Shown: positions 39,172 through 40,150 of the stretch, piece after piece | Layout: each line of letters starts with the position of its first letter | How positions within the stretch are numbered: the stretch's first letter is position 1 | Source of the DNA: Thermoleophilia bacterium | GTDB taxonomy: Bacteria; Actinomycetota; Thermoleophilia; Gaiellales; SKUG01 | Reading direction: 5' to 3' | Assembly (NCBI GenBank): GCA_025964435.1 | Contig: JAOPYV010000169.1 | Coordinates: 1-51,397, forward strand | DNA: 51,397 nt | Notes under the pieces: generated by a model | What the model was told of the DNA's origin: nothing | The model's input: only the letters and a program-made list of their open reading frames with translations | The model's database searches: none | Translations under genes and position numbers: made by a program

Positions 39172-39848
39172 ATGAAGGTCGAATCAATTGCAGAGCAGCT
39201 CTATTTCGTGACGGTGCACATTACCTCCGTTGGCAAACAGGCGGTCGCCACGGGCACTGGCTTCATCCATTACTTCCACATGGAGGACGGATCGCGAAAC
39301 GGTGTCATCGTCACGAATAAGCACGTCGTGGAGCCAGCAACAACGGAACTTCACATCAAGTTCCTGAAGGGGGATGGCGCCGGCGCTCCCGCCCTCGGTC
39401 GAATTGACGTGAGCTTCAACGGTTCACGTGAGACCGCATCACTCCTCGCGGGCCAAGCCGTCGAAAAGCCCGATCTCCTGCTGTCACCCTCGAACCCAAA
39501 GCGCGACCCAAAGCCCTTCACACTTACCCTCGGAGCCAAGATGGGACAGAAGCGAGGAAAGGGCCCTGGCTCATTCGTCGGTGACACGAAACAGCATACG
39601 CTGTCGTTCTACCGCGAGCTGGTACAGACACTTCGGGGTGGACACCGAAAGCGCCGCGCCTCGGCGACACTCCGGTCGAGCGGCAGGTGCCGACTGCGGA
39701 CGAGGATGGTGGCGGCATCAGCTTCCAGCCCGCAGGAACCGTCGCAAGCAGTCCCGAGCCATCGGTTACTGGATACACGATCGTGCCATCGACGCCGAAC
39801 GTGGATGACGCCGGATCGATCGATGATACGGCCCCTGTGACGACGTGA
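39172..39848 (+). pseudogene. Chimeric remnant: trypsin-like serine protease N-terminal fragment joined to a frameshifted C-terminal fragment of another gene
   Basis: GTGF and VTNKHVV protease motifs without the downstream GxSG; sense continues as WTPKAPRL... after a frameshift near 39636; less GC3-biased codons. Confidence 0.6.
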
Positions 39849-39873
39849 CCGAACATTCCCGACGCGCTACAAT
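39845..39873 (+). promoter_or_regulatory. Sigma70-type promoter for the putative antitoxin sRNA
   Basis: GTGACC (39845-50), 17-bp spacer, TACAAT (39868-73); no RBS or credible ORF downstream. Confidence 0.7.
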
Positions 39874-39879
39874 GACGAG

Positions 39880-39955
39880 TATCGATTGACTGCGGTGACG
39901 GCGACGTCACCTCCGTTGAGAAAGGGCCGGGGGTCTTCTCCCCGGCCCTTTCCGT
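39880..39955 (+). ncRNA. Putative antitoxin small RNA (~75 nt)
   Basis: Lies between promoter and terminator; GGTGACG-GCGA-CGTCACC hairpin; three segments complementary to the convergent peptide mRNA. Confidence 0.65.
39920..39952. terminator. Bidirectional intrinsic terminator
   Basis: Perfect 13-bp stem GAAAGGGCCGGGG / CCCCGGCCCTTTC with a 7-nt loop; short U-run on both strands. Confidence 0.85.
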
Positions 39956-39957
39956 CT

Positions 39958-40029
39958 TCACCGCCCCCGCGTCTCGCGGAGCACCACGATCAGCGTGACG
40001 GCGACGACGAGCAACGTGGCCAATGCCAT
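39958..40029 (-). CDS. 23-aa single-TM peptide MALATLLVVAVTLIVVLRETRGR, putative type I toxin
   Basis: Manual translation; strong SD GGAGGTG just upstream of the ATG; hydrophobic core plus basic tail. Confidence 0.7.
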   Translation of the reverse strand: MALATLLVVAVTLIVVLRETRGR

Positions 40030-40150
40030 GTTCACCTCCGTAGTCGATTGACTGCAGGCGATGGCATCCTTGGCACACGACTTCGTCGTTGCAGTCTTCA
40101 GGATGGCCCGCCACGATGTACGCACAGTCGTGTGACAATTGCGCGACGAA

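Follow-up and report, generated by a model that had tools for sequence, protein, structure and literature searches.

Before a candidate from cyanobacteria was reported, type I toxin-antitoxin systems had been described from three phyla only, the Proteobacteria, Firmicutes and Tenericutes (PMC12390103), and whether this narrow distribution among phyla is real or an artefact of the searches has been asked (PMC5367252, PMC12390103). No described actinobacterial type I system was found in the literature searched, supplements and T1TAdb tables lying outside its scope. Here we describe a locus in a 51,397-nucleotide (nt) stretch of DNA from a Thermoleophilia bacterium (contig JAOPYV010000169.1; hereafter the window) that would form a self-contained type I toxin-antitoxin-like module of ~300 bp with the layout of Enterococcus par. 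The locus, at which a gene for a 23-amino-acid (aa) hydrophobic peptide faces a predicted small RNA (sRNA), had been proposed in a first-pass annotation of the same DNA.

The par system of E. faecalis plasmid pAD1 (RNA I / Fst toxin, RNA II antitoxin), which also has chromosomal relatives, encodes a peptide, Fst, with a PXXXG(C) motif in its hydrophobic domain and a conserved tryptophan (PMC7472228). Like the window locus, par has a convergent toxin mRNA and sRNA that share a bidirectional hairpin terminator, direct repeats that are read in opposite directions, so that the sRNA is complementary to the region in which translation starts, a predicted stem within the toxin mRNA over the Shine-Dalgarno (SD) sequence (the stem in the window is likewise a prediction), and a peptide whose hydrophobic helix is followed by a charged C-terminal tail (PMC7472228). 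In contrast to Fst, which has 33 residues, the window peptide has 23, shows no sequence relation to Fst and contains neither PXXXG(C) nor tryptophan; three repeat segments, one of them out of order, take the place of DRa and DRb; the search for a toxin RNA promoter gave none; and the host belongs to the high-GC Actinomycetota instead of the Firmicutes (PMC7472228). The shared hairpin and the start-region repeats that characterize par are present both in the window and at a second locus in a genome of the same genus (G001, described below), and the peptide is small (<60 aa) and hydrophobic.

Two further systems resemble the locus in part. In ZorO-OrzO of E. coli O157:H7, likewise, an sRNA represses a small hydrophobic peptide by pairing with its mRNA (PMC3919570); homology of the window peptide to ZorO was checked through family libraries only, with no match. 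The msoT1/msoA1 pair of Microcystis aeruginosa is, like the window locus, a candidate type I system outside the three phyla that was found by its features and not by homology (PMC12390103), but it comes from another phylum, encodes another peptide and was subjected to growth tests in E. coli (PMC12390103); in the window, toxicity is a prediction.

The peptide gene lies on the minus strand (39958..40029, with the ATG at 40029 and the TGA at 39958) behind the SD sequence GGAGGTG (40033..40039), with 5 nt between GGAGG and the ATG; both elements, which the first-pass annotation had reported, were found again when the region was read on both strands. Its product, MALATLLVVAVTLIVVLRETRGR, has the appearance of a hydrophobic helix (~16 hydrophobic residues) followed by a charged tail. 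Searches of Pfam and NCBIfam with the peptide gave zero family matches at E values up to 10. This result, together with the lack of proline and tryptophan in the peptides of the window and of G001, agrees with the earlier remarks that the Fst PxxxG motif is missing and that the locus may be a new family, and the peptide is not a member of the Fst family.

On the plus strand, a promoter scan recovered the sRNA promoter that had been noted before, GTGACC-17 nt-TACAAT (39845..39873), as the single sigma-70-like site on either strand between 39000 and 40800 (shuffle mean 0.2); its −35 hexamer overlaps the stop codon (39846-48) of an upstream pseudogene. The predicted transcript, of ~78 nt (39881..39958), would begin with A at 39881, a position derived from the −10 spacing at leaderless genes (see below), and would continue with 35 nt of antisense sequence, folded into a 5′ hairpin, before closing with the terminator hairpin. 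Its predicted fold has a free energy of −44.8 kcal/mol (z score −5.23) and none of 200 shuffled sequences was as stable; the corresponding RNA of G001 gave a z score of −6.53 against shuffles.

The antisense block is made up of three exact direct repeats of the peptide gene, of 12, 12 and 10 nt, all of which were returned by a repeat finder where the first-pass annotation had placed them. Segment A (TCGATTGACTGC; 39882..39893 = 40044-55) is complementary to the 5′ untranslated region (UTR) of the peptide mRNA from −26 to −15, its target on the minus strand being 40044..40055. Segment B (GTGACGGCGACG; 39895..39906 = 39995-40006) is complementary to codons 8-12, and segment C (TCACCTCCGT; 39907..39916 = 40032-41), the anti-SD segment, to positions −12 to −3, including GGAGGUG. 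As had been remarked, segment A is out of order with respect to B and C. Between the two units lies a hairpin with a perfect 13-bp stem (39920-32 / 39940-52) and a 7-nt loop (39920..39952), the presumed terminator of both RNAs, which constitutes a fully complementary region between the sRNA and the peptide mRNA and whose stem occurs once in its own genome. One contig of a DNA sequencing run from soil (X2; depth 15.4 of 25.8) lacks one base of the loop, at 39937, which could be a strain variant or the look-alike hairpin of another organism.

A chance origin of the repeats is excluded. Three repeats of at least 10 nt arose in none of 2000 dinucleotide shuffles of 39841-40150, and one repeat of at least 12 nt in 0.5% of them. 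In a strict scan of the genome of origin (a 3.2-Mb assembly of 213 contigs, 88% complete) for three adjacent repeats with three different spacings, we obtained six triples at five loci; at the four other loci the spacings look like those of periodic arrays, and the only one of these inspected, which lies in the window, is a 36-nt tandem array.

The two strands of the genome together contain only 20 copies of TACAAT (for example at C9:9782, C72:4168, C85:5106, C91:38419, C161:8749 and C192:31172), against ~210 predicted from base composition (~ten-fold rarer), and at six of the 20 sites an ATG begins 7-8 nt downstream. Because of this rarity and this leaderless signature, TACAAT is here a genuine −10 element that is avoided elsewhere in the genome, and the spacing points to frequent leaderless mRNAs in this lineage. 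By the same spacing, the window RNA would start at A 39881 and the G001 RNA at the corresponding A, in each case one base before the antisense block.

As the first-pass annotation had proposed, related genomes were searched for the peptide. Seven of 151 genomes of the order had a six-frame match at E values up to 10, and only that of G001, a same-genus genome, lay in a short frame (67% identity, E 0.0035 per genome, open frame of 43 aa). The whole design recurs at this locus (L040) in the opposite orientation. A 22-aa peptide, MATASLLIVALAFVVVLRETRR, starts at an ATG 5 nt after GAGGAG; a perfect 13-bp hairpin, its stem almost as in the window, follows 19 nt past the stop; and the other strand carries TCGACT-17-TACAAT, with TG before the −10, as the single promoter-like site in 1.4 kb (shuffle mean 0.1). 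An exact 12-nt direct repeat (GCGATGGCCACG), of a length reached in 0.55% of shuffles, links the 5′ end of the sRNA to positions −3..+9 of the mRNA. A homologue devoid of paired repeats would have told against the module according to the first-pass annotation; the homologue found has its own repeat over the start region.

Comparison of the two loci separates what is conserved from what is not. The peptides share 15 of 22 residues but only 3 of 22 codons; the peptide gene is real and under purifying selection (synonymous difference, pS 0.63 and dS 1.40; nonsynonymous difference, pN 0.20 and dN 0.23; dN/dS ~0.16). All seven replacements are among small or hydrophobic residues, and the tail VVLRETR(G)R is strictly conserved, with seven synonymous codon changes in eight codons. 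The antisense parts of the two loci cannot be aligned to each other and each fits its own mRNA, with the block beginning in both species at +2 of the RNA, 9 nt past the final T of TACAAT. Duplexes of cognate sRNA and mRNA had z scores of −4.05 and −2.15, against −1.13 and −0.82 for the swapped pairs. sRNA and target thus appear to co-vary between the species, as judged from two sequences.

Duplex prediction between sRNA and mRNA, which had also been suggested, gave cognate pairing over the start region in both species. Segment A forms a duplex of −21.0 kcal/mol with mRNA positions −26..−15, and segments B and C together form a 22-bp helix of −40.9 kcal/mol around a 25-nt mRNA loop that holds the AUG. 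In G001, a nearly unbroken 24-bp helix extends over the SD and the AUG (−44.0 kcal/mol) and is imperfect over the SD. An alternative, colinear pairing is available in the window, in which A and the start of B pair with an upstream CAUCGCC stretch (−36.3 kcal/mol); this stretch is the partner of the SD in the predicted fold of the window mRNA (z score −2.66, on the predicted mRNA).

The proposed mechanism is as follows. The minus strand would encode a single-helix membrane peptide of 23 residues, and the strong TACAAT promoter on the plus strand would produce the ~78-nt non-coding RNA, which would start one base ahead of the 35-nt, three-segment block directed against the 5′ UTR, the SD and codons 8-12. 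Both RNAs would end in the same hairpin, making their 3′ ends fully complementary. Seated on the SD region, the sRNA would block ribosome binding and probably invite cleavage of the duplex. As long as the sRNA was in excess the peptide would remain silent; if the sRNA fell, the peptide would be made, insert in the membrane and slow or stop growth. The strong, rare −10 of the sRNA and the lack of a visible peptide promoter would fit an antitoxin in excess.

RNA sequencing bears on the peptide side of the locus. The stretch that holds the module is present in four runs of one soil study, one of which is an RNA run (X4). A contig of this soil metatranscriptome (record 26; 151 nt, depth 5.86) matches 39941..40085 with 0 differences and is uninformative as to strand; it covers the coding sequence, the SD and the target of segment A, and is the only identical contig within 39000-41000. 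It lends weak support to transcription of the peptide region, because the run was picked by words of this very stretch and the contig is of read length (perhaps from duplicates) and strandless. No X4 contig covers 39880-39940 or the flanking genes, except for a 32-nt dnaE piece with two differences, and gaps between contigs are no proof of absence. The X4 contig ends at the 3′ arm of a long imperfect minus-strand hairpin (40070..40138; 13-nt arms, 92% complementary, 43 nt between them) that lies between the stop of a 739-aa protein gene (40151) and the peptide 5′ UTR, and because of this coincidence a processing site at the hairpin is conceivable. A joint between 39069 and 40371 in X2 was disregarded, as one of its two sides is just 24 letters long.

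We conclude that the locus is very probably a functional module in which a small membrane peptide is controlled by an antisense RNA, and that its two members form a new family of known architecture in a phylum without a reported type I system. We lean with modest confidence towards reading the peptide as a type I toxin, its toxicity, like transcription of the sRNA and repression of translation, being predicted. Several points weigh against the toxin-antitoxin interpretation. The plus-strand sRNA is a prediction from the DNA sequence, and the X4 contig may represent duplicates from the polymerase chain reaction or DNA carry-over. A simple terminator scan did not flag the window hairpin, whose T-tract is weak, and we therefore use the word terminator on the strength of the stem; of the 13-bp bidirectional terminator in the first-pass annotation, the perfect inverted repeat between the units holds in both species, and the terminator call found no echo in the scan. 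In G001 the SD is, as in the window, predicted to pair with an upstream C-rich stretch, in a fold no better than those of shuffles (z score −1.11). The 12-bp helix of segment A and the 22-bp helix of B and C cannot, on geometric reasoning, both close in one pair of molecules, because the linkers are 1 nt (sRNA) and 2 nt (mRNA) long; segment A may therefore be the first contact or serve a second sRNA molecule. Finally, the peptide family has two members, both from incomplete metagenome-assembled genomes of one genus.

The lack of a visible promoter for the peptide gene counts against it as well. No sigma-70-like or TANNNT element was found upstream of the peptide in either species (other promoter types being outside the scan); the upstream sequence free of TANNNT amounts to 121 nt in the window and 63 nt in G001. 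For this reason the peptide mRNA, unlike the par RNA, possibly arises by read-through from the preceding gene. The par/Fst architecture named in the first-pass annotation thus holds in two species for the convergent sRNA promoter, the shared hairpin and the start-region repeats; on the peptide side the scan gave no promoter. That a type I toxin can be expressed from a longer transcript has a precedent in yonT/SR6 of the B. subtilis prophage SPbeta, where the toxin ORF (open reading frame) is on a polycistronic mRNA and is controlled by an antisense RNA that overlaps its 3′ end (PMC5848175); it differs from the window locus in that yonT has 58 aa and control is reported to be by promotion of mRNA degradation through the 3′ overlap, not by SD repeats (PMC5848175). 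We propose only tentatively, as a possibility that we consider less likely than not, that the module founds a type I family in Actinomycetota with a mosaic, three-segment antitoxin, one segment of which is out of order, and with a promoterless toxin gene fed by read-through from any gene behind which it has come to lie. On that proposal the antitoxin RNA could pair with the SD together with the coding region, or else with the anti-SD stretch further upstream in the mRNA.

The distribution of the module is sporadic. A two-sequence profile searched against the nine genomes of the family, which are 52-88% complete, found the peptide in two of them (that of the window, G000, and G001), and the two loci are unrelated. 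The window module occupies a 310-nt gap between two convergent ORFs. The G001 module consists of 269 nt between the stops of a yraN-like gene and rnhB, which in another genome (G003) are ~5 nt apart; downstream of rnhB, G000, G004 and G005 carry different genes and lack a small hydrophobic ORF, and the contig of G002 ends at that point. In G002, G003 and G005 the orthologues of the 739-aa protein gene are followed by pstS, a convergent gene and a urocanase-like gene, respectively, with no room for a module. In both species the sRNA promoter abuts the stop of a gene pointing toward the module. Because the loci are unrelated, G001 and G003 differ by the 269-nt indel and there is no room behind the 739-aa orthologues, the module is a discrete and mobile unit, present in some genomes and missing from others, and in every case lodged where two convergent genes end.

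One explanation for the same observations is that the peptide is an antisense-regulated small membrane protein other than a toxin, such as a modulator or stabiliser of a membrane complex, under the same SD-blocking sRNA. We regard this as unlikely, though it carries real weight: all RNA-level evidence of design fits it equally, the retained VVLRETR(G)R tail suggests a specific contact over mere hydrophobicity, and in both species the peptide gene, which lacks a visible promoter, follows a gene on the same strand. However, the two preceding genes are unrelated to each other (one encodes a 739-aa secreted repeat protein, the other is yraN), which makes a dedicated operon partner unlikely, and patchy presence at different loci with a clean 269-nt indel is expected of a selfish or addictive module and not of a housekeeping helper.

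Two alternatives would instead deprive the pairing of meaning. The plus-strand block might have arisen by duplication of the 5′ part of the peptide gene and be a rearranged, dead remnant, the promoter match and the repeats then having no regulatory role, and the setting gives this some colour, since the region is decaying, with the truncated and frameshifted remnant of a 492-aa protein gene adjoining, and its GC content is below that of the flanks. Yet at least three rearrangements would be needed with no point change in 34 nt, and both the independent, different repeat of G001, equally far from the same rare −10 hexamer, and the better fit of cognate over swapped pairs would go unexplained, so that we consider a dead remnant highly improbable. 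We give the least credence to the view that the repeats are DNA-level sites for a regulator or recombinase, or the ends of a small mobile element, with no RNA-RNA pairing. The module does act as a discrete insertion, and a TTGACT hexamer lies inside segment A, but neither terminal inverted repeats nor target duplications were seen at the insertion in G001 (the sole flanking repeat is within the coding sequence of rnhB, which is conserved), the three repeats differ from one another in sequence, and in both species they map to the SD/AUG and to the first predicted bases of the RNA, an arrangement that is meaningful only at the RNA level.

On the type I interpretation, which we prefer, the locus is a concrete candidate from a deep-branching, uncultured, high-GC actinobacterial lineage, has support from two species and was found by architecture, not homology. 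If the peptide is toxic, type I systems would extend to a new phylum and the par layout would have arisen or spread far outside Firmicutes. With a length of just ~270-300 bp and two natural versions that differ in their antisense sequences, the module offers a ready-made test of specificity. Should the tentative founding-family proposal be true, the module would be a portable device that senses or punishes read-through where convergent genes end.

Broader searches gave nothing further. Peptide and profile searches of the class gave matches in 112 of 401 genomes at E values up to 5, the best non-self match (E 0.0087) lying inside a 340-aa frame, and the 400 other genomes had no convincing peptide match, the motif screen being limited to 29 loci; two partial motif matches among these (L052 and L071) were rejected for want of an SD or of a hydrophobic start. 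The 310-nt intergenic stretch matched only itself in its own genome (next best 35 nt, E 0.0055), and among the 49 short matches listed in 40 relatives (22-56 nt) all but two fell on the helix-coding part. The BLAST nucleotide search missed the G001 module, and Rfam gave 12 matches at E values up to 10, none near its gathering score (best 26.8 bits vs 50). For an extended, 55-aa ORF there was no candidate in a set of 5.8 billion proteins, and 592 pattern matches in metagenome contigs yielded 0 confirmed; a match of this frame to DUF6069 (E 0.0081; 16.7 bits vs a cut-off of 27.2) was taken as helix noise. The hairpin stem is generic in species genomes, with at least 120 stretches from many phyla, and the 80 of these that were inspected included none with an adjacent small hydrophobic ORF. 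Combined with an LRETR pattern, it returned 106 stretches of metagenome contigs (19 frames of at most 80 aa, 0 peptide-like) and one stretch of viral contigs, within a larger coding region. A TGCAAC-ACGAA stretch upstream of the peptide that is common to both species was judged by eye to be due to chance, its distance to the ATG differing.

The placement of the lineage was addressed indirectly through the WhiB family, which among 14 control genomes had matches in Corynebacterium only. WhiB is absent from the genome of the window and from all 60 good genomes of the class searched, and is present, with several genes each, in 44 of 80 good genomes of the phylum (40 of 76 when the unpublished G502, G518, G546 and G565 are left out). 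By this indirect test, the lineage appears to be a WhiB-less class of Actinomycetota.

Upstream of the sRNA promoter, on the plus strand, lies the gene remnant (ORF 39121-39840), in a region (39100-40100) whose GC content, 58-63%, is below the 65-75% of the flanks. In five genomes of the genus, the remnant is related only to the C-terminal third of the 492-aa protein of G004 (62% identity over 117 residues), a genome without the module; the homology ends near 39790. Because a 1-nt gap near 39637 shifts the frame, the true end of the remnant is the TGA at 39846-48, in the −35 hexamer. The DNA contigs of two runs have the same sequence at the frameshift, which is therefore no obvious assembly slip. 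The G004 protein itself had only a sub-threshold match to the VRR-NUC nuclease domain (E 0.0066).

On the other side, the 739-aa protein gene (40151-42370, minus strand) encodes a secreted repeat protein with one weak match to an immunoglobulin (Ig) domain and with many partial paralogues in genomes of the genus, up to 28 matches in G005. A protein atlas assigned it to no firm family, and the atlas model has a beta-propeller-like N-terminal half and Ig-like repeats. The 36-nt tandem array in the window (32848-33162; 8.8 copies, 84% matches) encodes 12-residue repeats (DPKQTDVGGAKG-like) and is located in a 522-aa low-complexity ORF on the minus strand (32151-33719).

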